A DNA stretch of 64,000 nucleotides from an uncultured Winogradskyella sp. (GCF_947496485.1 NZ_CANMCZ010000001.1:55596-119595), one strand, 5' to 3'. Counted from the first letter of the stretch, positions 25,883-55,717 are shown. Numbers and translations are program-made. The notes: generated from the sequence alone by a model not told the origin.

Positions 25883-27049
25883 TTATTTCTTAATCCACAA
25901 CAGCGGAAACTTTATTGGCATATTTCTTATAATTTCTTGTTTTTCAGGAATTTCCGGAAGAGATCTCCAAAGTTCTAAATAACTTTCATCATTATAAGCC
26001 AAGGCACCAAATAAAACAGAGGTTTGTTTTGTTGGCCAATCTTCCCAATACATCACATCTTTTTGATATGGCCAATCATCCTTACTTTTTATATATTTAG
26101 TCATTAAATTTAGTCCTAAAACCAGACTCTTTCCATCTTCAGTTTCAAACTTAAATAAGTCATCGTTATTGGTCGACAAAATTTGTGCAAGTCCACAAAA
26201 AGCATCTAAGTTAAAAATAGAGTATCCATATGGTTTTGTTCTCGCCAATTCTTTGGGAAAACTTCCATCCTCACCCATTTGCTCTGGCAGTAAGGTGTTT
26301 TTAAAAAAGTTTTTGCACCATGTCAGTTGTTCTTCGTTTTCTGTAAGTTCTGCAAAAGCAGCAACCTGCATTGCCCAACATGTACTGTGATTGTTACCAT
26401 TATCACGCTCCTTTTTTCCGTAACTATGAGAAGTTAACCAACTCAAGTAGTCTTGAAACCATTCTTTAACCATTTTTAAATCAGAGTCTTGCATTAATCC
26501 TGAAGTCTCAACTACACGTATTGCTTTAGAAACTTCGATTAAATGAATTGTATCAATGATGCCAATACCTCTTCCTGTAACACGACCTTTTATAGCTTGT
26601 GCATACATTAAATTAGGGTTCATTTTAGTTTCATTGTTAACGAACCAAGCTCTTAAATGTGGAATTAAATCCTCAATATATTTATTGTTTTCTGTGACTA
26701 AATAAGCTGAAGCAAGAGATCCTGAAATTCTACTTAATCTTATCATAGCTATGCGATGCTCTGTAAAATTATCGGGATTAGTTAAACCGTCTTTTCTAAT
26801 GTAAGCACTATCTGGATGCTTGGGATTTGGCCACCAATAATCACCTTCAGAATAAAAATCATGAATTCCACCAGCACTTCTTTCAGAATAATAAGACGTT
26901 ACTGTTAAAGGTTTAAGATTAGAATAGTTTTTTGCTTCCTTAAGAATATATTTTCTTTCTAAGTCTAAAACAACTTGGAAATCCGTAGGCTGCTCTGTGC
27001 AGTTAAACACTGTACCTAAAAGAAAAATAATAAGCTTATAATGCCTCAT
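25883..27049 (-). CDS. Alginate_lyase (PF05426-like) family polysaccharide lyase, probably PL38; lipoprotein
   Basis: SEGDYWWPNP...YIRKDG, GIGIIDT, NNHSTCW and ELARTKPYGYSIFNL motifs; lipobox-like VFNC. Confidence 0.75.
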   Translation of the reverse strand: MRHYKLIIFLLGTVFNCTEQPTDFQVVLDLERKYILKEAKNYSNLKPLTVTSYYSERSAGGIHDFYSEGDYWWPNPKHPDSAYIRKDGLTNPDNFTEHRIAMIRLSRISGSLASAYLVTENNKYIEDLIPHLRAWFVNNETKMNPNLMYAQAIKGRVTGRGIGIIDTIHLIEVSKAIRVVETSGLMQDSDLKMVKEWFQDYLSWLTSHSYGKKERDNGNNHSTCWAMQVAAFAELTENEEQLTWCKNFFKNTLLPEQMGEDGSFPKELARTKPYGYSIFNLDAFCGLAQILSTNNDDLFKFETEDGKSLVLGLNLMTKYIKSKDDWPYQKDVMYWEDWPTKQTSVLFGALAYNDESYLELWRSLPEIPEKQEIIRNMPIKFPLLWIKK

Positions 27050-27060
27050 GAAAAAATAAA

Positions 27061-27103
27061 AAAATCTTCAAACTTCAGAAGTATACTTTCGTTTGAAGAT
27101 TTT
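27061..27103. terminator. Hairpin between the GH2 and PL38-like genes
   Basis: 13-bp arms aaaatcttcaaac/gtttgaagatttt with an inner aagtatactt palindrome; terminator or mRNA-stability element. Confidence 0.55.
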
Positions 27104-27122
27104 AAATCAAATTACTAATAAA

Positions 27123-29546: not shown

Positions 29547-29549
29547 ATA

Positions 29550-30725
29550 TTATAAAGCGTTTAATCTCAGTAAAGTTTCTAAAAAATAATAGTCACCATA
29601 AACTATTGGTTCATCCATTTCATCTTTTTTAGGCCAATTACCTGTACTATGATCTAAAATAAATGGAGCTTCTACAGCAGCGTCTAATATATAAGCTTCA
29701 GACTGTAGACTATTGATGACCTTTTTACTATAATCTAAATATCTTTTGTCTCTTGTATACCCATAGAGTTCAACGAGTGCTGACGCCACAACTGTACCAG
29801 CAGATACATCTCTGACTGCGTTAGGTATTCCTGGATCTTCAAAGTCCCAATATGGAATGCCATCATCAGGTAAATTTTTGTGATTTAGAAAAAAGTTAGT
29901 ACTCGCAATAGCTCTGTCTAAATACTTTGTATTCTTAGTATAACGATATGCCATTGTATAACCATAAATTCCCCAACCTTGTCCCCTTGCCCAAGAAGAC
30001 TCATCATTATATCCTTGGTGTGTTACTTTCAATCTCGGTTGACCAGTAATGGTATCATAATCTACAACATGATAACAGCTATTGTCTGGTCGAAAATGGT
30101 TTTTTAATGTTGTATTAGCATGCGTAATTGCCAATTTATGAAAAGTACTATCTCCAGATATTTTAGTAGCTTCAAAAAGCAATTCTAAATTCATCATATT
30201 ATCTATAATGACAGGAAATTGCCAAATATCTCTATTGAAATCCCAAGAGCGAATACTACCAATATCTTCTTTAAAACGCGTACTTAATGTTTCAGCACTT
30301 TCTACTATTATTTTTTTATAGGCATCATTGTCTTCATGCTTCAATCCATTTCCAAAGCTACAAAATACTTTGAAGCCCATATCATGTGTACGATTATTGA
30401 ACTTTTCTTGCTCAATAAAAGCTGTCCATTCTTTAGCTTTATCCTTAAACGCTTCATCTCCTGTCAACTCATATATTTGCCACAGATTACCAGCAAAAAA
30501 ACCACTCGTCCAGTCCTTTGATGGTACTTTTTTAATCTCATTTTTTTTGTGAGAATAACTTCTTGGAAATGATAAAGAATCTGCTTGATAAGACATTAAT
30601 TTTGCATAGCGCTTTTGTAACTGTTTCTCTATTGATTCAGGTTCTTCATTAATAGACTTTGACTCATTTTTACAACTTATCAATAGTGTAAAAGCAAACA
30701 TTAGTATAAGGATATTTTTACTCAT
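29550..30725 (-). CDS. GH88 unsaturated glucuronyl hydrolase, lipoprotein
   Basis: DWTSGFFAG, HDMGF, VIIDNMMNL, WARGQGWGIYG, YWDF, RDVSA and YGDYYFLE motifs; start MSKNIL at 30725. Confidence 0.92.
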   Translation of the reverse strand: MSKNILILMFAFTLLISCKNESKSINEEPESIEKQLQKRYAKLMSYQADSLSFPRSYSHKKNEIKKVPSKDWTSGFFAGNLWQIYELTGDEAFKDKAKEWTAFIEQEKFNNRTHDMGFKVFCSFGNGLKHEDNDAYKKIIVESAETLSTRFKEDIGSIRSWDFNRDIWQFPVIIDNMMNLELLFEATKISGDSTFHKLAITHANTTLKNHFRPDNSCYHVVDYDTITGQPRLKVTHQGYNDESSWARGQGWGIYGYTMAYRYTKNTKYLDRAIASTNFFLNHKNLPDDGIPYWDFEDPGIPNAVRDVSAGTVVASALVELYGYTRDKRYLDYSKKVINSLQSEAYILDAAVEAPFILDHSTGNWPKKDEMDEPIVYGDYYFLETLLRLNAL

Positions 30726-30943
30726 AATTACATGTAACATCTTAAAGATTAGAATAAAAACAATTCAATAAAATAACTTAGGTTTTAATATTACAATACT
30801 CAACTGTTTTTAGAATACTAAAACTAGCAAAAAGCATTAAAGTATAAGTACAAATTAGGGTATATAAATATCCTAATTATTATTTCGATAGAAGGAATGA
30901 TAACATATTTCAAAGAAACAGAGATTCTTCCTTTATCAAAAAA

Positions 30944-30973
30944 AAAATCGACTCTATGACTAGAGTCGATTTT
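30944..30973 (-). terminator. Intrinsic terminator downstream of susD
   Basis: aaaatcgactcta-tgac-tagagtcgatttt stem next to a long A-tract (U-tract on the minus strand). Confidence 0.8.
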
Positions 30974-31012: not shown

Positions 31013-32542
31013 TTAATATCCTGGATTATTAGGCATTAAATTTGGATTTCTTGCTAACTCATCTGCAGGTAATGGGTATAAATAATCTTGATCCTCAGAG
31101 AATCCAGGCTTAGCACCTTCTAAACCAGAAGCACCAAATACTTGTGGCCCGATTCTTCTTCTAGCGATGTCATACCATCTCTTAAACTCAAAAGCAAGTT
31201 CCCATTTACGCTCTTCTAAAACCATATCTCTGAAATCACTCTGAGATAAACCAGAAATATCTGCAGGAAACAAACCGGAAGTTACTCCATTACTATTTCT
31301 TGCTCTAGCTCTAACTCTATTTAAATAACCTTCTGCTTCCGTTGAGCCTGGGCTAACTTCATTCAATGCCTCTGCAGCTATTAGTAATACTTCTGCATAA
31401 CGTATCATAGAATAATTTTGTTGTGACCCTCTTCCATTTCCAGTAGCAGTTATACCTGTATTACGAGTGTATTTTGCAATATGTGGACGATTTACACCTC
31501 TACCACTTGCTCCACTTTCTTTAAACACTGTATAAGGCTGTGTAACTCCATTAAAGACTCCAGTAGTATCTAAACTAACAGCTTTTCTATAATCTCTGCC
31601 GTCCCATGTGTTGTAAACCTCTAGAGAAGGAACTGCAACAGACCAACCTCCACCAAGGTCATATTGTTCGTCATTTCTAAGACCAGTTAATGCTGCTTGA
31701 TAATCTCTACCTGTATCACCATCACTAAATCCATTAAAATCTAAAGCAAATATTGGCTCCAATGATCCGTCTATAGTGGTAGCATCGAATAAGTCTTGAA
31801 AATCAGCTTCTAAACCTAAGTTATAAGTACCTTCATTATCAATAACTCCTTTTGCCTCATTATAAGCACTTTGGTAATCACCAGTAGTTAAATACACTAG
31901 CGCTAAATATGAATGCGCTGCTGACTTGGCAGGTATAGATCTAGCTGCTTGCGTGTTAGGCAACCAAGTTTTAGCAAACTCTAAATCTGATATAATGTTT
32001 GTATATACATCAGCAGCAGAAGTTTTGCTGATTGAGCCTGCTGCATCAGCATCTGTTACTGGTTCATCTAAATAAGGAATAGCTCCAAATTGTCTTACTA
32101 AATGAAAGTATGCAAAAGCCCTAACAAAATAAGCTTGAGCTACAACTGGATTTTTCTGTTCATCAGGTGCACCTACCAAAGCAGATCCTGCAATAGCTTG
32201 ATTAGCAGCGGCTATAACTTGATAAACTCTTTGCCAATAACCCGAAATCATTCCATTATCGGTTGGGACATTAAATTCTTCGTGCTCAATTCTCCTTGTT
32301 GACGTTGTTGGATCACCTATAGATACCATATCACTTCGTAACATCAATGGCAATGACATTTTTCTTCCCCAGAAATCCTCTGTGGTCATATGTCCATAAG
32401 CTCCATTAACAGCGGTTTGAATATCTGCTACGCTGTTAAAAAATCCTTCAGGCGCTAGTAAACCTGATGGCTCCTCTTCTAAGTCTGAGCATCCCATTAT
32501 TGATACACCTATCAATAATAATAAAATTTTGTACGTTTTCAT
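31013..32542 (-). CDS. susD: SusD/RagB family glycan-binding lipoprotein
   Basis: Lipobox MGC; AYFVRAFAYFHLVRQFGAIP, IRYAEVLLIAAEA, ERKWELAFE and YLYPLP motifs. Confidence 0.95.
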   Translation of the reverse strand: MKTYKILLLLIGVSIMGCSDLEEEPSGLLAPEGFFNSVADIQTAVNGAYGHMTTEDFWGRKMSLPLMLRSDMVSIGDPTTSTRRIEHEEFNVPTDNGMISGYWQRVYQVIAAANQAIAGSALVGAPDEQKNPVVAQAYFVRAFAYFHLVRQFGAIPYLDEPVTDADAAGSISKTSAADVYTNIISDLEFAKTWLPNTQAARSIPAKSAAHSYLALVYLTTGDYQSAYNEAKGVIDNEGTYNLGLEADFQDLFDATTIDGSLEPIFALDFNGFSDGDTGRDYQAALTGLRNDEQYDLGGGWSVAVPSLEVYNTWDGRDYRKAVSLDTTGVFNGVTQPYTVFKESGASGRGVNRPHIAKYTRNTGITATGNGRGSQQNYSMIRYAEVLLIAAEALNEVSPGSTEAEGYLNRVRARARNSNGVTSGLFPADISGLSQSDFRDMVLEERKWELAFEFKRWYDIARRRIGPQVFGASGLEGAKPGFSEDQDYLYPLPADELARNPNLMPNNPGY

Positions 32543-32567: not shown

Positions 32568-35500
32568 TTAAAATCTTAGGTTAACTCCAAAATTAAAGGA
32601 TCTGACAGTTGGATAATTACCAAAATCGAAGCCTTGAGTTGTATTACTTTCTGAATTGCCTTGACCACCTGTTCCAAAATAACTTACTTCAGGATCTAAA
32701 CCAGAATAATCTGTTATTGTGAATAAGTTTTGTGCACTTACCGATATTCTAACACTCTCTAAACCTATCTTCCCTATAACGTCTTGAGGCAAGTTATAAC
32801 CAATGGCTATATTCTTTAATCTAATGTAACTTCCATCTTCTACGAAACGAGAAGAAATTTCTTTACCTCTAAGCTTAGCACGTGGAATATCTGTATTTGT
32901 ATTAGATGGTGTCCACGAGTTTAATACATCAGTTGTAGCATTAGAATCTCCATTAAACAACTGTACATTTGTAAGATTCATAATATCTCCACCTTGTACT
33001 CCTTGAAAAAAGATATTTAAATCAAAGTTTTTATAGGTAAAGTTATTTGTAAAACCAAATGTCCAACCTGGATTAGGATCCCCTATTATTTTTTTATCAT
33101 CGCCTGGAGAAATTACACCATCACCATCTAAATCCGTAAATAATTGATCACCTGCCTCTGCACCTGGTAAAATTCCTGTGCCTTCTGGTAACGAACCACC
33201 TTGGTAAACGCCTTGATATTCATAACCCCAAAAAACACCAACAGCTTCACCTTCTCTTAAAATATGGGTTTCATCTATATTAAAATAACCTGGAGACGCA
33301 TCAAGTATTATATCCTCACCATCTAACAATGTCACAAATTCATTTTTATTTGTAGACCAGTTTAAATCTGTAGTCCAAGTAAAATTCTCATTGCTTATGT
33401 TTCTTGTATTTAAATTTATTTCAAAACCTTTGTTATTCATCTCACCTACATTTTTTAAGCTAGGTAAAATACCAAAGTATTCTGGTTGAGACGTTTCTCT
33501 TATAATAAGATCTCTAGTATCTATATTATAATAATCTAATGACAATGAAACTTTATTATTAAGTAAACCAACATCTAAACCAATATTTGTTTGATAAGAT
33601 GTTTCCCATTTTAAATTAGGATTAGCTGCAACTTCTGGAAAAACAGCATTTACTGTTTGTCCGTTTAAGACAGCGTAAATATTATTGAATTGGGCTAAGG
33701 ACTCATATGCGCCAATAGCTTGATTACCTGTTAAACCATAACTAGCTCTAAATTTTAGATTAGAGATTTCTTCAATATTTTGCATGAAGTCTTCATTAGA
33801 TACTTTCCAACCAATTGCACCAGATGGAAATATAGCATACTTTTCATTTGCAGCAAAGTTAGAAGCACCATCTCGTCTTACAGTAGCAGTTAATAAGTAT
33901 TTATCATCCCAATCAAAATTTAATCTACCGAATTGTGATTGAATCTCTGATTCTACAAAGGAAGAAGACGGAAGTAACGGCACTGCACCACCACCTAAAT
34001 TATTAAATGAAAATGAATCTGATGTAAATCCTTGAGCACCTGCCGCAAAGCGTTGCGTATTTGTCTTCTGATAAGAATAACCTGCTAATAAGGTTAAGTT
34101 ACCTTTTCCAATTTCTCTGTTATAGGTTAAGTAATTCTCACTTAAAAGACTTGTTCTCTTAAAATTTTCAATTGCAGCGCTACCACCAATAGGTCCAGCA
34201 GTCTCAGTTAATGTTGAAGGTCTAAATAGACCAAAAGTCTCATTTCTGGTACTGTAACCAAAAGTCGTTTTAAAATTAAGACCTTCTAAAATATCATAAC
34301 TCGCATATAAGTTTGCTCTATAATCATCCCTTTTTGTTTGATTTACAGATTCAGTCGCAATGGCATAAGGATTGTCAACGTTATCTCCTACAGAGTTAAT
34401 TGTATTAATGCCGTTTTCATCTTGTATAGGTAAATCTGGTGCAAATCTAAACATCAATGAAATAACATCATCTCCACCTCCATTTGCAGTTTCACCTGTA
34501 GATTGTGTTGGTACACCATCCTGAGATCCTCTATTGGCAAATAGATTCATACCTAGTTTTAACTTGTCTGTAACTTGCGCATCAACATTTCCTAAGAAAG
34601 ATATTCTTTCAAATTCAGAATTTATAACAACTCCTTCTTGTTTAAAATAGTTGGTTGATGCATAAAAGTTAACATTTTCACTACCACCAGAAAAAGAAAA
34701 CTGATGATTTGAAACGCTACCGCCTCTATACAATAAATCTTGCCAATCCGTTTCGGCATTGCCTGGTGCATATCCAGGATTTAATGCAGTTTGATAAGTT
34801 GCAAATTGATCTGCGTTTAGTAAATCAAGTTCGTTTGCAGTATTTTGAGTAGAATAATTTGAATTAACCTCAACAGTTAATTTACCGCTTCTACCCTTTT
34901 TTGTAGTTACTAAAACAACACCATTTGAACCTCTAGATCCATAAATGGCCGTAGCAGAAGCATCTTTTAAAATCTCCATAGATGCGATGTCATTAGGTTG
35001 TGGCATCGTTGCACCTACAAAACCATCTACAACTATAAGGGGATTACTACTCGCGTTAATTGAAGTATTTCCTCTAATTTTAATATTGATTGGTGCACCA
35101 GGCTCACCACCATTATTAGATTGAACTACTACACCAGCAGCTCGCCCTTGAAGTGCTTGTTCTGCATTCAATAAAGGAAATGCATTTAGTTCTTTGGCTT
35201 TTACTGAAGAAACGGCTCCAGTTACATCACTTTTCTTTACTGATCCATAACCAACAACTACGATTTCATTAAGTTGATTAGTATCTTCTAGTAACGTTAC
35301 GTTAATAACAGATTGGCTTCCCACAGTTATTTCTTGTGGGACAAAACCAATATAACTGAAGACCAACACAGCCGTTCCATCTTCAACCTCGATACTATAA
35401 TTACCGTCAAAATCTGTAGTTGCACCTTGGGTTGTACCTTTAACCAGAATATTTGCACCTGGTAATGGCAATCCATTCGGACTACTCGAAACTTTACCAG

Positions 35501-35594
35501 TTACGGTTTGCTGAGCATTTAATGCTAAGCCGAATAAAAAGAATATCGAAAGTGATATCCATTTCACCTTTGCTTTTCTTAGTTGTTTTTGCAT
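32568..35594 (-). CDS. susC: SusC/RagA family TonB-dependent transporter
   Basis: CarboxypepD-like N-domain; VVVGYG, ILKDASATAIYGSRGSNGVVLVTT and NPNLKWET motifs; C-terminal Phe. Confidence 0.97.
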   Translation of the reverse strand: MQKQLRKAKVKWISLSIFFLFGLALNAQQTVTGKVSSSPNGLPLPGANILVKGTTQGATTDFDGNYSIEVEDGTAVLVFSYIGFVPQEITVGSQSVINVTLLEDTNQLNEIVVVGYGSVKKSDVTGAVSSVKAKELNAFPLLNAEQALQGRAAGVVVQSNNGGEPGAPINIKIRGNTSINASSNPLIVVDGFVGATMPQPNDIASMEILKDASATAIYGSRGSNGVVLVTTKKGRSGKLTVEVNSNYSTQNTANELDLLNADQFATYQTALNPGYAPGNAETDWQDLLYRGGSVSNHQFSFSGGSENVNFYASTNYFKQEGVVINSEFERISFLGNVDAQVTDKLKLGMNLFANRGSQDGVPTQSTGETANGGGDDVISLMFRFAPDLPIQDENGINTINSVGDNVDNPYAIATESVNQTKRDDYRANLYASYDILEGLNFKTTFGYSTRNETFGLFRPSTLTETAGPIGGSAAIENFKRTSLLSENYLTYNREIGKGNLTLLAGYSYQKTNTQRFAAGAQGFTSDSFSFNNLGGGAVPLLPSSSFVESEIQSQFGRLNFDWDDKYLLTATVRRDGASNFAANEKYAIFPSGAIGWKVSNEDFMQNIEEISNLKFRASYGLTGNQAIGAYESLAQFNNIYAVLNGQTVNAVFPEVAANPNLKWETSYQTNIGLDVGLLNNKVSLSLDYYNIDTRDLIIRETSQPEYFGILPSLKNVGEMNNKGFEINLNTRNISNENFTWTTDLNWSTNKNEFVTLLDGEDIILDASPGYFNIDETHILREGEAVGVFWGYEYQGVYQGGSLPEGTGILPGAEAGDQLFTDLDGDGVISPGDDKKIIGDPNPGWTFGFTNNFTYKNFDLNIFFQGVQGGDIMNLTNVQLFNGDSNATTDVLNSWTPSNTNTDIPRAKLRGKEISSRFVEDGSYIRLKNIAIGYNLPQDVIGKIGLESVRISVSAQNLFTITDYSGLDPEVSYFGTGGQGNSESNTTQGFDFGNYPTVRSFNFGVNLRF

Positions 35595-45794: not shown

Positions 45795-46952
45795 ATGAAA
45801 AAAAGTATCTTTCTTGTTTTAGTTTTATGTTGTTTTGCTTGTACTAAGACATCTTCAGAAGTGTTATCCTTAACAGTTAAAAACACATTAGATATAGACA
45901 GAGCTTTTGAAACTGTTGAAGTTGATATTACTGATATTGAACTTAAAGGGCAATCCTTAGAAGTTATAAATTCTGAAACCGATGAAGTCCTTGTTTCTCA
46001 AATTGTAGATAACGCGATACTCTTTCAACCAAAAATTTCGGCAAACTCAGAAGCTACTTTCAAAATAAACCTAATTCAATCTGAAGAACAACCTGATAGC
46101 ACATTAATAAGGTGCTACTCGCGTTTTGTACCAGAGCGAACAGATGATTACGCTTGGGAAAATAATAGAGTCGCATTCAGAACTTTCGGTCCTGTCGCTC
46201 AACAAATGAAAGAAGACGGTGTCAAAGGAGGTACCTTAACAAGTGGAATGGATGCTTGGTTAAAACGCGTAGAGTACCCAATTATTAACAAATGGTATGC
46301 AAAAGATGCCATCGAAAAAGGGGCTTACCACAAAGATACAGGTGAAGGATTAGACAACTTCCATGTTGGAGTTAGTCGTGGTGTTGGAGGTATAGCTGTA
46401 AAAACAGATTCTACATATGCGGTTTCTAAAAATTTTATTAATTACAAGACCATTACCAATGGCCCAATTAGAACGAGTTTCATATTAGAATATGCAAACT
46501 GGACAGCCAATGAAAAGGAAATTAGAGAAAAAAAACATATCATGCTCGATTATGGTCAAAACCTGAGTCGACATATTGTTGATATAAAAGGAACTGATAA
46601 AGTTTCTGTCGGTTTAACACTTCACAAAAATGATGGTGAAGTAACAACAAATACAGCTGAAGGTTGGATGAGCTATTGGGAACCATTCGATGATTCAGAA
46701 TTAGGTCAAGGAGTCGTGCATGCTAATCCGCAAAGTATCATTGGTTTTGATAACTATGTTACCGATAAAAAGGACGAGAGTAATTTGTATGTACAATCTA
46801 ACGTATCGGGAGTCATCGATTATTATGCTGGTTTCGGTTGGAAAAAAAGTGGACAATTTGAAACCAAAGACGATTGGAATAATTATTTAAGCCGATTTTC
46901 AAAATGCCTAAATCATCCATTAGAAGTAAAAGTTATAACACCGTCCAAATAG
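45795..46952 (+). CDS. DUF4861 family lipoprotein
   Basis: Lipobox CFAC; RFVPERTDDYAWENNRVAFRTFGP, DAWLKR, YHKDTGEGLD and YYAGFGW motifs. Confidence 0.8.
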   Translation: MKKSIFLVLVLCCFACTKTSSEVLSLTVKNTLDIDRAFETVEVDITDIELKGQSLEVINSETDEVLVSQIVDNAILFQPKISANSEATFKINLIQSEEQPDSTLIRCYSRFVPERTDDYAWENNRVAFRTFGPVAQQMKEDGVKGGTLTSGMDAWLKRVEYPIINKWYAKDAIEKGAYHKDTGEGLDNFHVGVSRGVGGIAVKTDSTYAVSKNFINYKTITNGPIRTSFILEYANWTANEKEIREKKHIMLDYGQNLSRHIVDIKGTDKVSVGLTLHKNDGEVTTNTAEGWMSYWEPFDDSELGQGVVHANPQSIIGFDNYVTDKKDESNLYVQSNVSGVIDYYAGFGWKKSGQFETKDDWNNYLSRFSKCLNHPLEVKVITPSK

Positions 46953-46953: not shown

Positions 46954-47943
46954 ATGAAACACAGCTCTATAAAATCAATTTTGCTTCTTTTTAGTCTTCT
47001 CATGTGTATGGCTTCATGTAAAGATGACACTGGTCCCAAGGTAATGTACCTTGGTCATACTTTACCTCAAACACATCCTGTACATAAAGGGATTGTAGAA
47101 TTTCAAAAGGCATTAGAAAAAAAATCTAATGGGACGTTAAAAGTGAAGATATTTCCTGATGCGCAGTTAGGATCAGAACGCGAGGTTTTAGAACTATTGC
47201 AAATTGGTTCTGTAGCTGCCACCAAAGTAAGTGCTGCAACCTTGTCTAATTTTGTGCCAGAATACCACCTTTTAGGCATTCCGTATTTATTTAGAGATAA
47301 ACAACATCAGTTTGATGTTTTAGAAGGAGATATTGGTAAATCGATTTTAGAAAAAGGTTCTAAATTTTGGCTACGTGGCTTGTGTTATTACGATGCCGGA
47401 AGTAGAAGTTTTTATACTAGTAATAAAGCTATTAGAACACCCCAAGATTTAGAAGGTCTTAAAATTAGAGTGATGAACAATCAAATGGCTATAAATATGG
47501 TGAATTCCATGGGAGGATCCGCAACACCTCTTGCCTATGGAGAATTATATACAGCGATTCAACAAGGTGTTGTTGATGGCGCTGAAAATAATCCACCATC
47601 ATTTGTGTCTTCAAATCATTATGAAATTAGTAAATATTACACCTTAGACCAACATTCTTCGGTGCCAGATGTTCTTTTAATTGGAACAAAGTTTTGGGAT
47701 AAATTATCAGAGGAAGAAAAAATATGGGTGCAAGAAGCTGCAGACGAATCTGCTCAGGCTCAAAAGAAGTTTTGGAGTGATTCTGTAGACGAATCTATGA
47801 AAATCGCTAAAGCTGCTGGCGTGGAAATAATCATTCCAGAAAAATCCTTGTTTGCCGAAAAGTCGAAATCTGTTGTTGAGGAATTTGTTAAGGAATTTCC
47901 GGAAATGGAACCCATTGTAAATCAAATTAAAAATAAAGAATAA
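46954..47943 (+). CDS. dctP: TRAP transporter substrate-binding protein (uronate-type DctP)
   Basis: HPVH, QLGSEREVLE, GLKIRVM and YTAIQQGVVDGAENN motifs. Confidence 0.93.
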   Translation: MKHSSIKSILLLFSLLMCMASCKDDTGPKVMYLGHTLPQTHPVHKGIVEFQKALEKKSNGTLKVKIFPDAQLGSEREVLELLQIGSVAATKVSAATLSNFVPEYHLLGIPYLFRDKQHQFDVLEGDIGKSILEKGSKFWLRGLCYYDAGSRSFYTSNKAIRTPQDLEGLKIRVMNNQMAINMVNSMGGSATPLAYGELYTAIQQGVVDGAENNPPSFVSSNHYEISKYYTLDQHSSVPDVLLIGTKFWDKLSEEEKIWVQEAADESAQAQKKFWSDSVDESMKIAKAAGVEIIIPEKSLFAEKSKSVVEEFVKEFPEMEPIVNQIKNKE

Positions 47944-48434
47944 TGAATAAATCTGATCTTATTTTTAATAAAGTATGCCGAATTCTCGAATGGTTTATGA
48001 TCGTGATTTTTGCGCTTTTAGTTCTGGATGTTTTGTTCCAGGTGTTTTCAAGATATCTTTTAGGTACATCCTTTACATGGACCGAAGAATTTGCGCGATT
48101 CGCATTAATTTGGATGACCATTTTAGGAGCTGCCTATCTCAGTGGCAAAAAAGAACATTTATCAATGGATTTTTTATATCAAAAATTCTCTGAGTCTAAT
48201 AAAAGAAAAGCTTCTATTCTTATTGAGGTATTGATATTTCTATTTGCACTTATCGTCATGGTTATTGGCGGATTAAATTTAGTATACACAACCTTACATT
48301 TAGAACAACTTTCTGGTACGTTAAGAATTCCTTTAGGCTATGTATATGCTGTTATGCCATTCAGTGGTTTTCTAATCATGTGCTTTTCGATATATCACAT
48401 TTCAAAAATTTATAACAACAAAAACAATAATTAA
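47943..48434 (+). CDS. dctQ: TRAP transporter small permease DctQ
   Basis: QVFSRY...WTEEFARF...HLSMD motifs; 4 TM segments. Confidence 0.93.
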   Translation: MNKSDLIFNKVCRILEWFMIVIFALLVLDVLFQVFSRYLLGTSFTWTEEFARFALIWMTILGAAYLSGKKEHLSMDFLYQKFSESNKRKASILIEVLIFLFALIVMVIGGLNLVYTTLHLEQLSGTLRIPLGYVYAVMPFSGFLIMCFSIYHISKIYNNKNNN

Positions 48435-48436
48435 TT

Positions 48437-49741
48437 ATGAGCATAGAAGTTATAAGTATTATCGTTTTGTTTGTGAGTTTCTTTACGCTCTTGTTACTCA
48501 AAGTACCTGTAGCTTATAGTATCGGTATAGCAACAACATTAAGTCTATTACTAAATATTGATAAATTACCTGGTTTAACAACTATTGCCCAGCGAATGAC
48601 CACAGGTATTGATAGTTTTGCATTGTTGGCTATTCCCTTCTTTATTCTGGCAGGTGATATTATGAAACGCGGAGGTATTGCCACACGACTCATCAATTTC
48701 GCTAAATCTTTAGTATCAAGTCTTCCAGGTGGATTAGCTTATGTAAATATTTTAGCATCGATGTTATTTGGTGCCATTTCTGGTTCTGCGCTTGCGGCCG
48801 CGTCTGCAATTGGCAGTATAATGACGGATAGAATGGAAGAAGAAGGTTACCCAAGAACCTTAAGTGCGTCCGTAAATATTACAGCTTCAACTACTGGTTT
48901 ATTAATTCCACCGAGTAACATTTTAATTGTTTATGCCTTAGCAAGTGGAGGAACAGCCTCTGTAGCCGCTTTGTTTATTGCAGGTTATCTTCCTGGAATA
49001 CTATTAGGTTTTGCTATTATGGGTTATGTGGCTTTTATAGCTATTAGTAAAGGTTATGCAAAAGGTAAACGTGCGACATTGCGTGAAGTTTGGACATTTT
49101 TCAGAAAGGCTTTTTTTAGTTTATTATTATTAGTTATTGTCGTTGGTGGTATTGTCGCAGGAATTTTTACAGCTACGGAAGCTTCAGTAATCGCTGTTTT
49201 ATATGCAGCAGTATTATCATTGGCTTATGGTGATATGAAAGTAAAAGATTTTTCAGGAGTATTATTATCTAGTGCTAAAACCACAGCTGTTGTTATGTTT
49301 TTGATTTGTACATCTATGGCAATGTCATGGTTGTTTTCGTTTGAAGGCATTCCTGAAATGATAAGCACCTTTCTATTAGAATCGTTAAATAATAAATTCG
49401 CGATCTTTTTAGCAATTAATCTTATCCTATTGGTTATTGGAACATTTATGGACATGACTCCTGCTGTTTTAATTTTTACACCAATTTTTCTACCTGTAGT
49501 AACCGCTTTAGGAATGGATCCTGTACACTTTGGGATTGTGATTGTACTGAATTTATGTATTGGGATTTGTACACCTCCCGTAGGAACACTACTCTTTGTA
49601 GGTAGTGGTGTTGCAAAAGTTTCGGTCACGCAGGTTATAAAACCATTGTTGCCGTTTTTGTTAATTATGGTAGTTGTATTAATGCTAATCAGTTTTATTC
49701 CAGAAATTTCAATGTTTTTACCAAGATTGTTTGGATTGTAA
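48437..49741 (+). CDS. dctM: TRAP transporter large permease DctM
   Basis: AIPFFILAG, FGAISGSA, LIPPS, GIFTATEA and TPPVG motifs. Confidence 0.95.
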   Translation: MSIEVISIIVLFVSFFTLLLLKVPVAYSIGIATTLSLLLNIDKLPGLTTIAQRMTTGIDSFALLAIPFFILAGDIMKRGGIATRLINFAKSLVSSLPGGLAYVNILASMLFGAISGSALAAASAIGSIMTDRMEEEGYPRTLSASVNITASTTGLLIPPSNILIVYALASGGTASVAALFIAGYLPGILLGFAIMGYVAFIAISKGYAKGKRATLREVWTFFRKAFFSLLLLVIVVGGIVAGIFTATEASVIAVLYAAVLSLAYGDMKVKDFSGVLLSSAKTTAVVMFLICTSMAMSWLFSFEGIPEMISTFLLESLNNKFAIFLAINLILLVIGTFMDMTPAVLIFTPIFLPVVTALGMDPVHFGIVIVLNLCIGICTPPVGTLLFVGSGVAKVSVTQVIKPLLPFLLIMVVVLMLISFIPEISMFLPRLFGL

Positions 49742-49909: not shown

Positions 49910-49924
49910 ATTAATTTTGCCTCT

Positions 49925-50986
49925 ATGAAAACTTTACACATTTTATTAATATTATGTTTTACTGTACAATTATCATTTGCACAAGTAATACTTAACGCAA
50001 ATGAACCAGGAAATACTTATGAAGATATTAATGCTGTATTAGCACCTGGACATGATGTTGTAGAAGTACCAGATTGTTCACACAGTAGTTTTGGGCGTCA
50101 TATCGATGAAGTTTTTGATAAAGAATTAAACACTTATGTTTTCCGGTTTATTGCACATAAAACCCCAGATAATGATCGCTGTAAAAAATTTGACAGACAG
50201 CGTATTGAAATAAAAACCTACGGAAAATCGCCTGAAAACACTAAAGGATTAGAAGGCGAGACTGTTGAATACAAATGGAAGTTTAAACTACCACGTAATT
50301 TTAAAGTTTCAAAAAACTTTACACACCTCCATCAAATAAAATCCGTTGGCAGTGTATATTCATCAAGACCTATTATTTCGTTAACTGCTAGAAAAGGGAC
50401 ACCAGACCGATTAGAACTACGTTACGCACCTGAGCATGATCAGAGTACAATAGGAACTATAGAATTAGATTTACTAAAAGGGCATTGGGTAGAAGTTACC
50501 GAAGTTATTCATTATTCAAATCAAGGAAGTTATTCTATCGAAATTAAAAAGGTTTCGAATGGGTCTAATGTATTTGAATACTCAAATGATAGCATAGATA
50601 TGTGGCAAGATGGCTCAGATTTTATGCGTCCAAAATGGGGAATTTATAGAAGTTTAAAACGTCCAGAAGATATAAAAGATGAAATGGTGTTATTTAACAG
50701 TTTTAGCATTGATGAAATTCCGATACTCACCCTTGAATACTTAGAAAGCAAAGCGGATAAAAAACAACTCGTTCCTGATTCTAAAAAGCGCACTGTAAAT
50801 TTCAAAAGCTCAAGAGCAGATGATTACGATTCTATAGAACTCTATGATGGTACTGGTAAAAAAGTCTCAACAAAAAAAATACTTAAAAAGTATAAATTAG
50901 ATTTGTCAGCATTAAGCGCTGGCAACTATTATCTTGTATTTACTAAAAATAAAAGAACAGTAAAAATTTTAAAATGCTCAACTTAG
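49925..50986 (+). CDS. Secreted beta-jelly-roll polysaccharide lyase-like protein (Polysacc_lyase / heparin lyase I-like fold) with degenerate T9SS CTD
   Basis: Signal peptide MKTLH...SFA; DRQRIEIK, YKWKFKLP, FTHLHQIK and RPKWGIYR motifs; C-terminus LYDGTGKKV...LSAGNYYL...KILK. Confidence 0.65.
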   Translation: MKTLHILLILCFTVQLSFAQVILNANEPGNTYEDINAVLAPGHDVVEVPDCSHSSFGRHIDEVFDKELNTYVFRFIAHKTPDNDRCKKFDRQRIEIKTYGKSPENTKGLEGETVEYKWKFKLPRNFKVSKNFTHLHQIKSVGSVYSSRPIISLTARKGTPDRLELRYAPEHDQSTIGTIELDLLKGHWVEVTEVIHYSNQGSYSIEIKKVSNGSNVFEYSNDSIDMWQDGSDFMRPKWGIYRSLKRPEDIKDEMVLFNSFSIDEIPILTLEYLESKADKKQLVPDSKKRTVNFKSSRADDYDSIELYDGTGKKVSTKKILKKYKLDLSALSAGNYYLVFTKNKRTVKILKCST

Positions 50987-50990
50987 TAGT

Positions 50991-51962: not shown

Positions 51963-51972
51963 TTTTTAGTAC

Positions 51973-53376
51973 TTATTTAAATTTAAAGTAATTCTTAGCG
52001 TTAAAATAACAGATATCACTTACTATTTTCCCTAGATGTTTTTCGTCATTTGGCAACTCACCATTTGCTACATCATTACCTATGAGATTACAAAGAATTC
52101 TTCTAAAATACTCGTGTCTTGGAAACGATAAAAAACTGCGAGAATCTGTTAGCATACCAACAAAACAACTTAGCAAACCTTGGTTAGAAAGTGTATTTAT
52201 TTGCTTTTCCATACCATCTTTTTGATCTAAAAACCACCAAGCAGAACCAAATTGCACTTTTCCTCTAATTGTACCATCATTAAAGTTTCCAACCATTGTA
52301 GCAAAGACTTCATTATCTGAAGGATTCAAATTATATACAATAGTTTTTGCTAATTGATTGGTACTATCTAAAGTGTTTAAAAAACCACTTAAACCTCTTG
52401 CCTGAGAAAAATCTCCAATAGAATCAAATCCTGTATCTGGTCCTAAATCACTTAAAAGTCGTTTGTTATTATTTCTAATGGCACCTAAGTGTAATTGCTG
52501 TGTCCAACCTTTAGCATGATACATTTTCCCCAAATGAATCATAGTTTCGGCTTTAAAAAACTGAACTTCTTCCACTGAAAGTGATTCGTTATGTTTTACT
52601 TTTTTGAAAAGCATTTCAATATCGAAAGTGTCATTTTCATAATGATATAATTGCTCTAAACCGTGATCTGCTAATCGTCCACCAACATTATGAAAGAAGT
52701 CGACTCTAGTTTGTAAAGCATCAATTAAGTCTTTGTAATTATTTATTTGTTTGCCTGATGCGCTTTCTAGTTTATCCAGATAACCATTATATTCATTTAC
52801 ATCTTCAACTGCAAAAGCTTTATCTGGTCTGAAAGTTGGCAATGTTTTTACTCTAGAATTATCTTTCTCAATTACAATATGATATTCTAAGTTATCTATC
52901 GGGTCATCTGTAGTGCACAGAGACTCAACATTCATTAGTTGTAATAACCCATTTGCAAAATACGATTTTTGCTTCAAAAGTAATGATGTCTTATCCCAAA
53001 TAGCTTCTGCTGTTTCGGGAGATAACAATTCTGTAATTCCGAAATAATTCTTTAATTCTAAATGTGTCCAATGGTACAATGGATTTCGAATGGTTAATGG
53101 TACAACTTCCGCCCATTTTAAAAATTTATCTTTATCTGAGGCGTCGCCAGTTATAAAATTTTCGTTAATACCATAAGCTCTCATAGCTCTCCATTTGTAA
53201 TGATCGCCAGCTAGCCAGACTTGTGTTATATTTTCGAACTGTCTATTTTCGGCAATTTCCTTTGGTGACAAGTGATTATGATAATCTATAATTGGAAGCT
53301 GCTTAGCATAGTTATGATAAAGCGATTTTGCAATATCTGTTTGAAGTAAAAAATCTTCTGTGATAAAAGTATTCAT
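51973..53376 (-). CDS. uxaC: Glucuronate (uronate) isomerase
   Basis: IIDYHNHL, DHYKWRAMR, NPLYHWTHLEL, WWFLDQ and TDSRSFLSFPRHEYFRR motifs. Confidence 0.97.
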   Translation of the reverse strand: MNTFITEDFLLQTDIAKSLYHNYAKQLPIIDYHNHLSPKEIAENRQFENITQVWLAGDHYKWRAMRAYGINENFITGDASDKDKFLKWAEVVPLTIRNPLYHWTHLELKNYFGITELLSPETAEAIWDKTSLLLKQKSYFANGLLQLMNVESLCTTDDPIDNLEYHIVIEKDNSRVKTLPTFRPDKAFAVEDVNEYNGYLDKLESASGKQINNYKDLIDALQTRVDFFHNVGGRLADHGLEQLYHYENDTFDIEMLFKKVKHNESLSVEEVQFFKAETMIHLGKMYHAKGWTQQLHLGAIRNNNKRLLSDLGPDTGFDSIGDFSQARGLSGFLNTLDSTNQLAKTIVYNLNPSDNEVFATMVGNFNDGTIRGKVQFGSAWWFLDQKDGMEKQINTLSNQGLLSCFVGMLTDSRSFLSFPRHEYFRRILCNLIGNDVANGELPNDEKHLGKIVSDICYFNAKNYFKFK

Positions 53377-53479
53377 AGGCACTAATTTACATAGTAAATA
53401 TAGATACTCCTACATTAAAATTTGCTTTTTGAAAGTATAAATAGGTCTAAAAAAATGCTTTTGTGGTCTATTACATAGA

Positions 53480-53995
53480 CTATTCTTGTAATAGTTTATT
53501 TAAACTATTGAGAGAAAGCATTTCTATTTCTTCTAAAGAGTGACCCCTTTCAATATTTACAACTTCTATAGGAATTTGATGATTAGAATAATTATAGGTC
53601 TGTTTCTTCTTTTTTGAAATCACTATTATTCCATCTGTAGACCCATCACTTAAACTTTTTATATAATTTAATTCCTTCTTATTGGAATTGAATGATTGAT
53701 AAAACAAAATTCGATATCCAACACTTTCAGCAGTTTTTTGCAGATGACATAATGCATGGCTATAACACATCTGAGTAACTTCTGGCAATATGATTGCAAT
53801 AGACTTTGTTTTCTGTGCTCTAAGTGAAACAGCATAATTATTTGGCACATAATTATGCTGTTTGGCTATAGTTTTAATTGCTTCTCTAGTAGCCTTGCTA
53901 ATTTCTAGCTTATTGTTTAAAGCCTTTGATACCGTAGATATAGAATATCCAGATAAAAATGAAATTTCTTTTATGGTTACTGTAGAGGATTTCAA
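53480..53995 (-). CDS. Half-length LacI-family regulator (HTH plus N-terminal sub-domain only)
   Basis: VTIKEIS..SGYSISTVSKALN HTH, YVPNNYAVSL hinge, DGIIV; ends at 171 aa; starts 3 nt after the eda stop. Confidence 0.75.
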   Translation of the reverse strand: MKSSTVTIKEISFLSGYSISTVSKALNNKLEISKATREAIKTIAKQHNYVPNNYAVSLRAQKTKSIAIILPEVTQMCYSHALCHLQKTAESVGYRILFYQSFNSNKKELNYIKSLSDGSTDGIIVISKKKKQTYNYSNHQIPIEVVNIERGHSLEEIEMLSLNSLNKLLQE

Positions 53996-53998
53996 AGG

Positions 53999-54667
53999 TT
54001 ATGCTCTTAAATCTTTAATTATTGCCAATGCATTTTTTGTGTCAGACTCAATTTTTGCTAAGTCATAGTTACCATCTGCGCCTTTAGCGATTAGTTTAGA
54101 ACCCATACCAACACAAGTTACACCAGCTTTAAACCAACCTTCTAAGTTCTCTTTAGTAGGAGATACACCACCTGTTGGCATAATGCTCGTCCATGGTTGA
54201 GGACCTCTAATTGCCTTAACAAAATCAGGACCGTAAATACCACCTGGGAATAATTTAACAACCTCACATCCTAGCTCTTCAGCTCTGCAAATTTCTGTTA
54301 AAGAACCACAACCTGGTGACCAAGCTACTTTACGCCTATTACAAACTATGGCAATATCTTCTCTTAGAACCGGTGTTACGATAAAATTAGCACCTAATGC
54401 CATAAAACGAGAAGCTGAAGCTGCATCTGTAACTGAACCAACTCCCATAATCATTCCTGGTAATTCTTTAAGTACCCATTTATTGAGCTCACCAAAAACT
54501 TCATGAGCAAAATCACCCCTAGCAGTAAATTCTAGTAAACGTGCACCACCATCATAAGTAGCTTTTATTACTTTTTTACTTATTTCTATATCTGAATTAT
54601 AAAACAATGGAACCATTCCGGTTTGTTTCATAACATTTGCGACTTCTATTCTTGAAAAATTTGCCAT
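53999..54667 (-). CDS. eda: KDPG/KHG aldolase
   Basis: LEFTAR, GVGSV, VKLFPG and MPTGGV motifs. Confidence 0.93.
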   Translation of the reverse strand: MANFSRIEVANVMKQTGMVPLFYNSDIEISKKVIKATYDGGARLLEFTARGDFAHEVFGELNKWVLKELPGMIMGVGSVTDAASASRFMALGANFIVTPVLREDIAIVCNRRKVAWSPGCGSLTEICRAEELGCEVVKLFPGGIYGPDFVKAIRGPQPWTSIMPTGGVSPTKENLEGWFKAGVTCVGMGSKLIAKGADGNYDLAKIESDTKNALAIIKDLRA

Positions 54668-54670
54668 AAT

Positions 54671-55717
54671 CTATCTTGCTACACGTCCTGAGGCATCACC
54701 ACCCATTAATTTTTCTACTTCTGAAACAGTCACTAAGTTGGCATCACCTTTAATAGTGTGTTTTAAACATGATGCTGCTACAGCAAAATCAAGTGCATTC
54801 TGATCATCTTCTGGATATTTTAATAATCCATAGATTAATCCACCCATAAAAGAATCTCCACCGCCAACTCTATCTACAATGTCGGTAATTTGATACTGAC
54901 GTGTTTCATACATCTTGTTACCATCGTATAGTACACCGGCCCATGTGTTGTGAGATGCTGAGATAGAACCTCTTAAAGTTGTAATCACTTTTTTAGCTCT
55001 TGGAAACTTTTCCATCATTTGCTTGCAAACCGATAAGAAAGCTTCAGCTTTAACATCATGTCCATGCTTGTGCACGTCTAATCCTTCTGGATGAATACCA
55101 AAATGCTTCTCTGCATCTTCTTCGTTTCCTAAAACAATATCACAATAAGACGTTAATTCAGTCATTATTTTTTCTCTATGCTTTTCATCACAGAATGTCC
55201 AGAGTTTAGCTCTGTAATTTAAATCAGTAGAAATAGTAACTCCCATTTCGCTAGCAACTTTTACTGCTTCCAAACATGCATCTGCCGCACCTTGAGAAAT
55301 TGCGGGTGTAATACCTGTCCAATGAAACCAAGCTACGTCTTTAAAAACAGCTTTCCAATCCACCATACCTGGCTTTATATCTGAAATTGCAGAATGCGCT
55401 CTATCATATACGACTTTACTTCCTCTACTTACAGCACCAGTTTCTAAAAAATAAATTCCTAAACGCTCACCTCCATAAATAATCTTATCTACGCCAACAC
55501 CTCTTTTTCTCATTTCCATCATTGCACATTGTCCGATATCATTATTTGGTAAACGTGTAACAAAGTCCACGGGCACACCATAATTGGCTAATGATACAGC
55601 TACGTTAGACTCTCCACCACCATATACAACATCAAAGCTCGTTGTTTGGGAGAATCTTAAAAATCCAGGAGGTGCTAATCTTAGCATAATCTCTCCAAAA
55701 GTGACTACTTTTTTCAT
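54671..55717 (-). CDS. kdgK: 2-dehydro-3-deoxygluconokinase (PfkB family)
   Basis: FGEIMLRL, GGGESNVA, HWTGITPA, DLNYR and DRVGGGDSF motifs. Confidence 0.95.
   Translation of the reverse strand: MKKVVTFGEIMLRLAPPGFLRFSQTTSFDVVYGGGESNVAVSLANYGVPVDFVTRLPNNDIGQCAMMEMRKRGVGVDKIIYGGERLGIYFLETGAVSRGSKVVYDRAHSAISDIKPGMVDWKAVFKDVAWFHWTGITPAISQGAADACLEAVKVASEMGVTISTDLNYRAKLWTFCDEKHREKIMTELTSYCDIVLGNEEDAEKHFGIHPEGLDVHKHGHDVKAEAFLSVCKQMMEKFPRAKKVITTLRGSISASHNTWAGVLYDGNKMYETRQYQITDIVDRVGGGDSFMGGLIYGLLKYPEDDQNALDFAVAASCLKHTIKGDANLVTVSEVEKLMGGDASGRVAR

Follow-up and report, generated by a model that had tools for sequence, protein, structure and literature searches.

The 64,000-nucleotide stretch of DNA from an uncultured Winogradskyella sp. 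considered here (GCF_947496485.1, NZ_CANMCZ010000001.1:55596-119595; the whole stretch is referred to below as the window) raises the question of which polysaccharide is the target of a polysaccharide utilisation locus (PUL) that lies, together with genes for uronate catabolism, at positions 25883–55717. The PUL is predicted to encode a PL38-family polysaccharide lyase, a GH2 β-glucuronidase and a GH88 unsaturated glucuronyl hydrolase (UGL), next to a SusC/SusD pair and a regulator of its own. We consider, with moderate confidence, that it would serve for the utilisation of an unsulfated β-1,4-glucuronan-type polymer, or of a glycan containing runs of 4-linked glucuronic acid (GlcA), and that it forms part of a uronate island together with an alginate system. 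A first-pass annotation, made from the sequence alone, had proposed as target an unsulfated GlcA-rich polymer rather than alginate, ulvan or glycosaminoglycans (GAGs). The restriction of the enzymes to GlcA, the presence of both catabolic branches and the lack of sulfatase, rhamnosidase and N-acetylhexosamine (HexNAc) genes speak for that proposal, while the alginate neighbourhood of the PUL and a PL38 lyase that is not diagnostic of substrate speak against it.

Organisation of the locus

Domains were assigned with Pfam and NCBIfam and relatives were sought in the PDB, the Pfam scans covering essentially all open reading frames (ORFs) of the window of at least 120–150 aa. The G+C content of the window is about 32%, and the closest relatives of its proteins are from Winogradskyella, with 86–89% identity to Winogradskyella sp. 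R77965. All the genes that had been listed for 25883–55717 were found again at the same coordinates. The minus strand between 25883 and 41712 carries the genes for the PF05426 lyase, GH2, GH88, SusD, SusC, a hybrid two-component sensor/regulator (HTCS) and a β-helix protein; the plus strand between 42001 and 50986 carries those for a UxuB-type short-chain dehydrogenase/reductase (SDR), UxuA, KduI, a KduD-type SDR, a DUF4861 protein, a tripartite ATP-independent periplasmic (TRAP) transporter (DctPQM) and a PF14099 jelly-roll protein with the tail of a type IX secretion system (T9SS) substrate; and further minus-strand genes for a GFO-family oxidoreductase, UxaC, a truncated LacI protein, Eda and KdgK follow. 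The features of the PUL, with the jelly-roll gene, are these:

25883–27049, minus strand: PL38-family polysaccharide lyase, 388 aa, predicted lipoprotein (Cys17); PF05426, 263 bits
27123–29546, minus strand: GH2 exo-β-glucuronidase (GUS), 807 aa, predicted lipoprotein; GUS class with DUF4982 and a second C-terminal domain
29550–30740, minus strand: GH88 unsaturated glucuronyl hydrolase, 396 aa, predicted lipoprotein; PDB 3wiw, 1vd5
30944–30973, minus strand: hairpin of a perfect 13-bp inverted repeat with a T-run after it, within the 273 bp separating susD from the GH88 gene
31013–32542, minus strand: SusD-like glycan-binding lipoprotein; PF07980 and PF14322 (SusD_RagB, SusD-like_3)
32568–35594, minus strand: SusC-like TonB-dependent transporter; CarbopepD_reg_2, Plug and TonB barrel domains
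35934–40004, minus strand: HTCS; Reg_prop, Y_Y_Y, HisKA, HATPase_c, Response_reg and HTH_18 domains
40054–41712, minus strand: right-handed β-helix protein with a signal peptidase I (SPI) signal peptide, 552 aa from its likely start
49925–50986, plus strand: secreted β-jelly-roll lyase-like protein with T9SS tail, 353 aa from its likely start; PF14099 and PF18962

The susC and susD genes are adjacent (32568–35594 and 31013–32542), and the genes for HTCS, SusC, SusD, GH88, GH2 and PL38 all run in the same direction between 25883 and 40004, so that co-oriented carbohydrate-active enzymes (CAZymes) and a dedicated regulator accompany the pair. The ORFs delimited mechanically for the β-helix and jelly-roll proteins start too early; the database calls P0121 (552 aa) and P0241 (353 aa) give starts at 41712 and 49925, the latter being the coordinate used in the first-pass annotation.

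Enzymes predicted to act on glucuronic acid

GlcA residues are the only predicted targets of the four CAZymes that make up the PUL proper, and in the Pfam scans neither the PUL nor the rest of the window has, beyond these enzymes, any other glycosidase, sulfatase or HexNAc gene. The best PDB matches of the GH2 protein are the β-glucuronidases 6d7j (PmGUS of Parabacteroides merdae, 618 bits, about 50% identity) and 6d1p (BuGUS-3, 596 bits). An extended rubric for such enzymes comprises a pair of catalytic Glu residues, an N-x-K-G motif and a Tyr or Trp at the position of Y468 in Escherichia coli GUS (EcGUS) (bioRxiv 10.64898/2026.06.20.733316). Alignment of the window protein to PmGUS (6d7j) located all of these features: the acid/base E412, the nucleophile E497, the carboxylate-binding N588-Q-K590-G591, and W468 at the EcGUS Y468 position. 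The rubric and the PDB matches thus support the earlier suggestion that this GH2 can release GlcA.

The GH88 protein matches the Pedobacter heparinus GH88 (3wiw) with 303 bits (E 2.4e-89) and the Bacillus UGL (1vd5) with about 179 bits (E 1.1e-51), and the Asp pair that is catalytic in 1vd5 (D88 and D149) is matched in the alignment by its D120 and D180. Since the P. heparinus enzyme is specific for 1,4-linked unsaturated disaccharides, the window GH88 appears closest to a 1,4-specific UGL. Judged by these residues, both GH2 and GH88 look active.

Assignment of the lyase to PL38 is based on its similarity to solved members (3nfv, 181 bits, E 2.9e-52; BoPL38 8bdq, 122 bits, E 2.6e-34) and on its catalytic residues rather than on CAZy/dbCAN hidden Markov models. 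In BoPL38, Y298 and H243 are the catalytic bases, assisted by R292, E236 and Y91, while H297 matters for the Michaelis complex with alginate (bioRxiv 10.1101/2024.12.11.627697). Residues Y71, E214, H221, R270 and Y276 of the window protein align with, and are identical to, Y91, E236, H243, R292 and Y298 of BoPL38, and the five are invariant in 22 orthologues of the window PL38, which also looks active on this basis; the position of H297 is occupied by G275. The family contains glucuronan lyases, as had been noted in the first-pass annotation, two of which are characterised (CUL-I from Brevundimonas sp. SH203 and TpPL38A from Trichoderma parareesei), but also two alginate lyases (BoPL38 from Bacteroides ovatus CP926, and Aly38A) and one lyase, RiPL38, that acts on hyaluronan (HA) and chondroitin sulfate (CS) (PMC13027841; PMC11890756).

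It is the combination of enzymes that is more informative. Once a lyase has cut and GH88 has removed the unsaturated residue, only the β-glucuronidase remains, and the next residue at the non-reducing end must therefore be a substrate for it. Consecutive GlcA residues fit this demand; the alternating GlcA-HexNAc of GAGs, or the GlcA-rhamnose-3-sulfate repeat of ulvan, does not. The catabolic genes, described below, agree: there are branches for GlcA and for unsaturated uronate, and none for galacturonate. The reasoning of the first-pass annotation is thus strengthened by the GUS rubric, by the likeness of GH88 to a 1,4-specific UGL, by the lack of uxaA and uxaB, and by a module that is conserved and in places fused. 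Two characterised glucuronan lyases in PL38, and a PL20 glucuronan lyase as the best structural match of the jelly-roll protein, also speak for a glucuronan-type substrate.

Two further proteins may contribute depolymerising activity. An AlphaFold2 model of the β-helix protein shows a right-handed β-helix (predicted local distance difference test score, pLDDT, 79). The best Foldseek matches of this model are phage capsule depolymerases and lyases with a template-modelling (TM) score of about 0.4, and assignment to a family by fold was rejected because these are generic β-helix depolymerases. Against the NCBIfam model for the BT3328 family (NF058554) the protein scores E 7e-25, with 87 bits over 364 residues, as against an equivalog cutoff of 1100. 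It would thus be a distant relative, and not a member, of the family of BT3328, a hyaluronic acid endo-lyase and the founder of PL29, and it is a candidate endo-lyase. The jelly-roll protein matches PF14099 with 33.7 bits (gathering threshold 29.9), and its model (pLDDT 87) has as its best Foldseek match the PL20 glucuronan lyase 2zzj; a PDB sequence search with it returned nothing at E ≤1. The Foldseek E-values for PL20, PL13 (heparinase I), PL36, PL14 and PL7 alginate lyases all fall in a range of about three orders of magnitude. The model points to a lyase of the PF14099/jelly-roll clan, with a fold that does not reveal the substrate.

Conservation of the GH88-GH2-PL38 module

At least 597 loci with a PL38 relative came out of an alignment-based scan in which each species was represented by one genome. 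The best 80 of these, all with a relative at least 49% identical to the window PL38, were compared by tblastn with the window proteins and by de novo clustering of all ORFs; counts of context are given for 74, and individual loci are denoted by L-numbers. One order, called here type A, comprises β-helix, HTCS, (SusC, SusD), GH88, GH2 and PL38, and is found in marine and freshwater Flavobacteriaceae, the marine hosts being Algibacter, Jejuia, Salegentibacter, Sungkyunkwania and metagenome-assembled genomes (MAGs). The β-helix gene adjoins the HTCS gene in L003, L010, L013 and L014, and a second β-helix family (26% identity to the window protein, E 4e-17), which also matches the BT3328 model weakly, is present in ten more PL38 loci. 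HTCS, GH88, GH2 and PL38 also occur together in Dysgonomonas, in Parabacteroides goldsteinii and in a Bacteroides MAG.

In several MAGs, labelled Bacteroidetes, Caldisericaceae, Melioribacteraceae, Cytophagia and Puia, enzymes of the trio are fused. GH88-GH2 fusions form single ORFs of 1174–1179 aa beside PL38 (L029, 10296–13820; L031, 4767–8306; L058, 2905–6429), and GH2-PL38 fusions form single ORFs of 1154–1209 aa (L055, 7463–11092; L049, 6071–9535). The conservation of the GH88-GH2-PL38 order in many species, together with these fusions, implies that the clustering is not due to chance, and fusions of both kinds argue strongly for a single substrate shared by the three enzymes. Among the unassigned neighbour genes scanned in five type A loci there was no hexosaminidase; there were extra GH88 copies, an esterase and, in one locus, PL8.

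Other arrangements were seen in the same comparison. In the freshwater MAG loci L010, L012, L013 and L014, the genes for β-helix, HTCS, GH88, GH2 and PL38 follow one another without SusCD in between, and L013 additionally has a member of the second β-helix family and PL6-like genes downstream. A soil-type core of GH2, GH95, GH31, PL38, GH29, GH88 and a PL6-like gene, found in L024, L026, L032, L034, L059, L063 and others (Chitinophagaceae, Pedobacter, Mucilaginibacter), hints at a glycan that is fucosylated and has GlcA in its backbone. Bacterial glucuronan and bacterial alginate both carry O-acetyl groups in nature; in Dysgonomonas sp. 520 (L068), where HTCS, GH88, GH2 and PL38 are all present, a protein of the BD-FAE/acetyl-esterase type is encoded at 13078–15441 between a PL6-like gene and a second copy of PL38.

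Uronate catabolism and a proposed pathway

The genes following the PUL account for the conversion of hexuronates to 2-keto-3-deoxygluconate (KDG) and beyond:

42001–42828, plus strand: SDR-type D-mannonate oxidoreductase (UxuB function); NCBIfam PRK08277, 418 bits, cutoff 281
42839–44026, plus strand: UxuA, D-mannonate dehydratase; PF03786, 423 bits
44158–44997, plus strand: KduI, 5-keto-4-deoxyuronate isomerase; PF04962, 105 bits
44999–45793, plus strand: KduD-type SDR; PRK07097 (NCBIfam name gluconate 5-dehydrogenase), 449 bits, above cutoff
45795–46952, plus strand: DUF4861/BT3233-family lipoprotein; PF16153, 263 bits; NF058564, 382 bits, above cutoff
46954–49741, plus strand: TRAP transporter DctP, DctQ, DctM; PF03480, PF04290, PF06808
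50991–51962, minus strand: GFO/IDH/MocA oxidoreductase, directly downstream of uxaC; NCBIfam matches all below threshold
51973–53382, minus strand: UxaC, glucuronate isomerase; PF02614, 708 bits
53480–53995, minus strand: truncated LacI-family ORF, 171 aa; helix-turn-helix and first ~70 residues of the sugar-binding domain
53999–54667, minus strand: Eda, KDPG aldolase; PF01081, 104 bits
54671–55717, minus strand: KdgK-type PfkB kinase; PF00294, 106 bits
55870–56886, plus strand: LacI-family regulator, from the domain scan

UxaC, UxuB, UxuA, KduI, KduD, KdgK and Eda are all represented, KduD by context: the SDR at 44999–45793 scores 240 bits, below cutoff, against the TIGR01832 kduD model, and it is its position beside kduI that suggests this role. 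Both the GlcA branch and the unsaturated-uronate branch are therefore complete to KDG by homology, as first proposed, but kdgK and eda are probably not private to this route. UxaA and UxaB, of the galacturonate branch, were not found in the scans of the window, which argues against pectin; a pectin PUL was rejected because PL1, PL9, PL10, GH28, GH105 and CE8 are likewise missing from the window. The DUF4861 protein, whose relative BT3233 is needed by Bacteroides thetaiotaomicron for unimpaired growth on CS, HA and heparin (PMC8121099), would suit the handling of 4,5-unsaturated uronate beside KduI and KduD. The LacI-family regulator at 55870–56886 probably controls the hexuronate genes; the shorter ORF that separates uxaC from eda (53480–53995) is probably what is left of such a gene after truncation, of which 55870–56886 is the full-length paralogue, or possibly a DNA-binding-only protein.

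A pathway for the PUL may be proposed from homology and genomic context. Lipoprotein-type signal peptides are present on PL38, GH2, GH88 and the DUF4861 protein, and a signal peptide of SPI type on the β-helix protein, while T9SS sorting domains are carried by the jelly-roll protein and by a 307-aa protein encoded at 24813–25736. Lyases that are secreted or at the cell surface (the T9SS jelly-roll protein, the PL29-like β-helix protein, or both) would generate unsaturated GlcA oligosaccharides, which would be sensed by the HTCS and enter through SusC/SusD. In the periplasm, the lipoprotein PL38 would shorten the oligomers by β-elimination, GH88 would take off the unsaturated residue at the non-reducing end, and the GH2 β-glucuronidase would remove saturated GlcA once this became terminal. 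The monomeric uronates would then be imported by the TRAP system. The unsaturated product would be converted into KDG by KduI and KduD, probably with the help of the DUF4861 protein, and GlcA by UxaC, the SDR-type UxuB and UxuA, after which KdgK and Eda would yield pyruvate and glyceraldehyde-3-phosphate. The hairpin between susD and the GH88 gene could act as an internal terminator or attenuator in the operon, lowering the level of the enzyme transcripts relative to that of susCD. A scan for sigma-70 promoters gave matches at chance level, as expected for Bacteroidota, and the public sequencing runs that contain part of the region are of DNA or metagenomes only, with no RNA runs.

The alginate neighbourhood

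The first-pass annotation left out a PL6 gene, the gene for the T9SS protein at 24813–25736, both LacI genes and an alginate-type locus that begins at 56986. Apart from the LacI genes, these neighbours are:

22342–24732, plus strand: two-domain PL6 alginate lyase (AlyGC-like), 796 aa; PF14592, 383 bits; PDB 5gkd (AlyGC), 436 bits
24813–25736, minus strand: secreted protein with T9SS C-terminal sorting domain, 307 aa; PF18962 only, 60 bits
56986–64000, minus strand: alginate-type utilisation locus, comprising the following five genes and a partial sixth
56986–57750, minus strand: SDR, candidate reductase for 4-deoxy-L-erythro-5-hexoseulose uronate (DEH)
57805–59121, minus strand: major facilitator superfamily (MFS) transporter
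59132–59845, minus strand: GntR-family regulator
60009–60992, minus strand: PKD protein
61029–62462, minus strand: SusD
62481 to the window end, minus strand: SusC

The architecture of 56986–64000 agrees with that of published alginate utilisation loci (PMC12323373). The locus runs past the end of the window, and its lyases other than the PL6 at 22342–24732 must lie beyond 64000. This PL6, whose gene is a conserved neighbour in L002, L003, L005, L083 and L084, probably belongs to the alginate system and not to the GlcA PUL. It had been argued earlier that DEH, the product of alginate, is handled by a different reductase; a candidate for that reductase, probably the SDR at 56986–57750, has now been found next door. 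KdgK and Eda, encoded between the two systems, are probably common to both, and the region is more aptly viewed as a uronate island, in which three inputs lead to KDG, than as a two-branch route of the PUL's own.

The gene for the 307-aa T9SS protein lies 146 bp downstream of that for PL38, and its N-terminal domain of about 235 aa has no relative in Pfam, NCBIfam or the PDB. In Sungkyunkwania (L084) a T9SS protein with an LTD domain is encoded in the matching position after PL38, at 11386–12459. At the other end of the window, the minus strand at 865–6753 carries four tandem genes for proteins of about 460–496 aa, and two of these (865–2352 and 5263–6753) give the only PF00884 'Sulfatase' matches in the window. 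These are of about 30 bits, to membrane proteins encoded some 20 kb away, and were rejected as PUL sulfatases; one of the two also has a weak membrane acyltransferase-like match at its N-terminus, and both look like membrane-anchored proteins of the alkaline phosphatase superfamily. The earlier statement that PUL sulfatase, rhamnosidase, PL8 and HexNAc genes are lacking thus holds for the whole window, the Pfam scans having found no rhamnosidase, PL8, hexosaminidase or formylglycine-type PUL sulfatase.

Which polymer is the substrate?

Several observations weigh against a glucuronan-type substrate. An ulvan PUL was rejected for the window, which has no sulfatases, no rhamnosidases and no PL24-, PL25-, PL28- or PL40-like genes. 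The alternative that fares best, although we think it unlikely, is that the PUL is directed at a GlcA-containing heteropolysaccharide (for example the backbone or side chains, made of uronate, of a brown-algal or diatom glycan or of a bacterial exopolysaccharide) of which the GH88-GH2-PL38 trio treats the GlcA part, the other enzymes being encoded elsewhere in the genome. The fucosidase-bearing order of the soil-type core occurs in 21 of the 74 loci, mostly in Chitinophagaceae and Sphingobacteriaceae; PL8 and/or heparinase II/III-like genes are found in 12; one to three sulfatase genes come directly after the freshwater type A loci L010, L012, L013 and L014; the PL38 relative in Polaribacter filamentus adjoins a sulfatase; and that in Flavobacterium faecale, with 59% identity, is surrounded by genes for GH43, PL14, sulfatases and two GH2 proteins. 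With relatives of 50–59% identity beside GH29/GH95, GH31, PL8, heparinase II/III-like and sulfatase genes, the lyase would therefore appear to tolerate or to target heteroglycans. Identity to the window PL38 is 51–69% for type A and 49–55% for the fucosidase type, so that the classes are poorly separated. The same PL38 clade in such varied PULs is not diagnostic of homopolymeric glucuronan; it is best seen as supplying PULs of several types with a lyase of general use on 4-linked GlcA, and the substrate of a given PUL must be read from its other enzymes. In the marine type A loci (the window, L001, L002, L005 and L084) these include no debranching glycosidase, and their own SusCD and HTCS are the usual signature of a self-sufficient PUL. 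Genes for the catabolism of fucose, rhamnose, xylose or HexNAc are likewise lacking from the window.

A PUL for an unsulfated GAG-like polymer (hyaluronan, heparosan or unsulfated chondroitin), in which GH88 would split unsaturated disaccharides while the genes for HexNAc utilisation lie elsewhere, seems to us improbable. In its favour are the activity of RiPL38; the fact that the only sequence relatives of the β-helix protein with a known function, distant as they are, belong to a hyaluronan endo-lyase family; the origin of the nearest GH88 structure in P. heparinus, which degrades heparin; and the homology of the DUF4861 protein to BT3233, a fitness factor for GAG utilisation in B. thetaiotaomicron. 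Yet the evidence from DUF4861, KduI and KduD fits any source of 4,5-unsaturated uronate equally well; a β-glucuronidase that is coupled, and sometimes fused, to GH88 has little role if alternate residues are HexNAc; and neither GH20 nor nagA/nagB nor a sulfatase was seen in the window or in the scanned neighbour genes of loci with the same arrangement. The fold match of the jelly-roll protein, which cannot separate PL20 from the alginate or heparin lyase families, weakens the case for glucuronan, and so does the poor activity of PmGUS, the nearest GH2 to have been characterised, on p-nitrophenyl (pNP) glucuronide.

It appears quite improbable that the locus is an accessory branch of alginate utilisation, with PL38 as an alginate lyase and with GH88 and GH2 acting on alginate oligosaccharides or on a co-occurring contaminant. 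The setting is its chief attraction: the PUL is embedded in an alginate neighbourhood, with the AlyGC-like PL6 gene directly upstream and a complete alginate-type locus directly downstream, and in marine Flavobacteriaceae the trio is repeatedly found among PL6 and PL7 alginate lyase genes. In Polaribacter haliotis it is flanked by PL7, GntR and SDR genes at one end and by PL6 at the opposite end; PL38, the T9SS protein, PL7 and PL6 follow in order in Sungkyunkwania; and PL6 is beside the trio in L002, L003 and L005. Two of the characterised PL38 enzymes are, moreover, alginate lyases. Against this, the PUL has its own SusCD and HTCS, and the alginate SusCD, under the control of GntR, is separate; freshwater and gut bacteria possess the module with no alginate genes close by; the window PL38 has only about 122 bits to the alginate-active BoPL38 and does not have its H297; and KduI, KduD, UxaC and UxuB are unnecessary for DEH. 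We also know of no demonstrated activity of GH88 or of a GUS-type GH2 on residues derived from mannuronate or guluronate. It seems highly improbable that the trio serves as a side-route for the hydrolysis of alginate, or of some other polyuronide from brown algae, in which GH88 would act on unsaturated ends derived from mannuronate or guluronate and GH2 as a β-mannuronidase, neither of which activities, to our knowledge, is known in these families.

A polymer with consecutive 4-linked GlcA thus remains our preferred substrate for the PUL. β-1,4-Glucuronan occurs in the walls of green algae and fungi and in bacterial exopolysaccharides. If the assignment is correct, the combination of PL29-like β-helix protein, PL38, GUS-type GH2 and GH88 with its own SusCD and HTCS would serve as a marker by which the turnover of polyglucuronate could be followed in metagenomes of marine, freshwater, soil and gut origin; a natural polysaccharide substrate would be assigned to gut β-glucuronidases of the PmGUS/BuGUS-3 class, known mainly from drug metabolism; and an uncharacterised β-helix family would gain its first function. 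The placement of the PUL beside alginate genes would suggest that both polyuronides are met together in nature.

Comparison with known systems

The enzyme families and the PUL architecture are already known; what is new is the conserved module and the substrate that is proposed here as a candidate. According to a paper from 2025, Bacteroides luhongzhouii, a gut bacterium, grows on β-1,4-glucuronan; a cellouronate lyase is reported as characterised, and several PL38 lyases are mentioned as putative (PMC12423752). A comparative study from 2026 lists 'beta-glucuronan' among the predicted substrates of Flavobacteriaceae associated with brown algae (PMC12961874). Full-text literature searches found no characterised marine flavobacterial glucuronan PUL, which bears out the first-pass annotation, whose author was aware of none; in the literature searched there was also no Bacteroidota PUL characterised for β-1,4-glucuronan, and none of the characterised PL38 enzymes was described inside a marine flavobacterial PUL.

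With the characterised PL38 lyases the window enzyme shares PF05426, the conserved Tyr, His, Arg and Glu residues (by comparison with BoPL38) and, by prediction, β-elimination at a 4-linked uronate; the sequence comparison, made with BoPL38 and 3nfv, shows that it is only about 30% identical to BoPL38 and has Gly in place of H297. The GH2 protein resembles PmGUS and BuGUS-3 in its class (with DUF4982 and a second C-terminal domain), in its scores of about 600 bits and in the residues of the GUS rubric. Those two enzymes, however, have been studied on drug and model glucuronides, PmGUS being very slow on pNP-GlcA, and the literature consulted contains no report of a natural polysaccharide substrate for PmGUS.

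The flavobacterial alginate loci of the Zobellia galactanivorans type are represented next door by PL6, GntR, MFS, SDR, the PKD protein and SusCD, and the adjacent PUL studied here probably shares KdgK and Eda with them. It differs in having its own SusCD and HTCS, and in having GH88, GH2, KduI, KduD, UxaC and UxuAB, which are not needed for the catabolism of alginate. The GAG PULs of B. thetaiotaomicron (PL8, the PL29 enzyme BT3328 and GH88), together with BT3233, are similar in their strategy of a lyase followed by GH88; the β-helix protein is distantly homologous to the BT3328 family, with 87 bits where the equivalog cutoff is 1100, and the DUF4861 protein is a member of the BT3233 family. 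Where those systems have sulfatases, PL8 and HexNAc-related genes, the window locus has none of these and has a β-glucuronidase instead.

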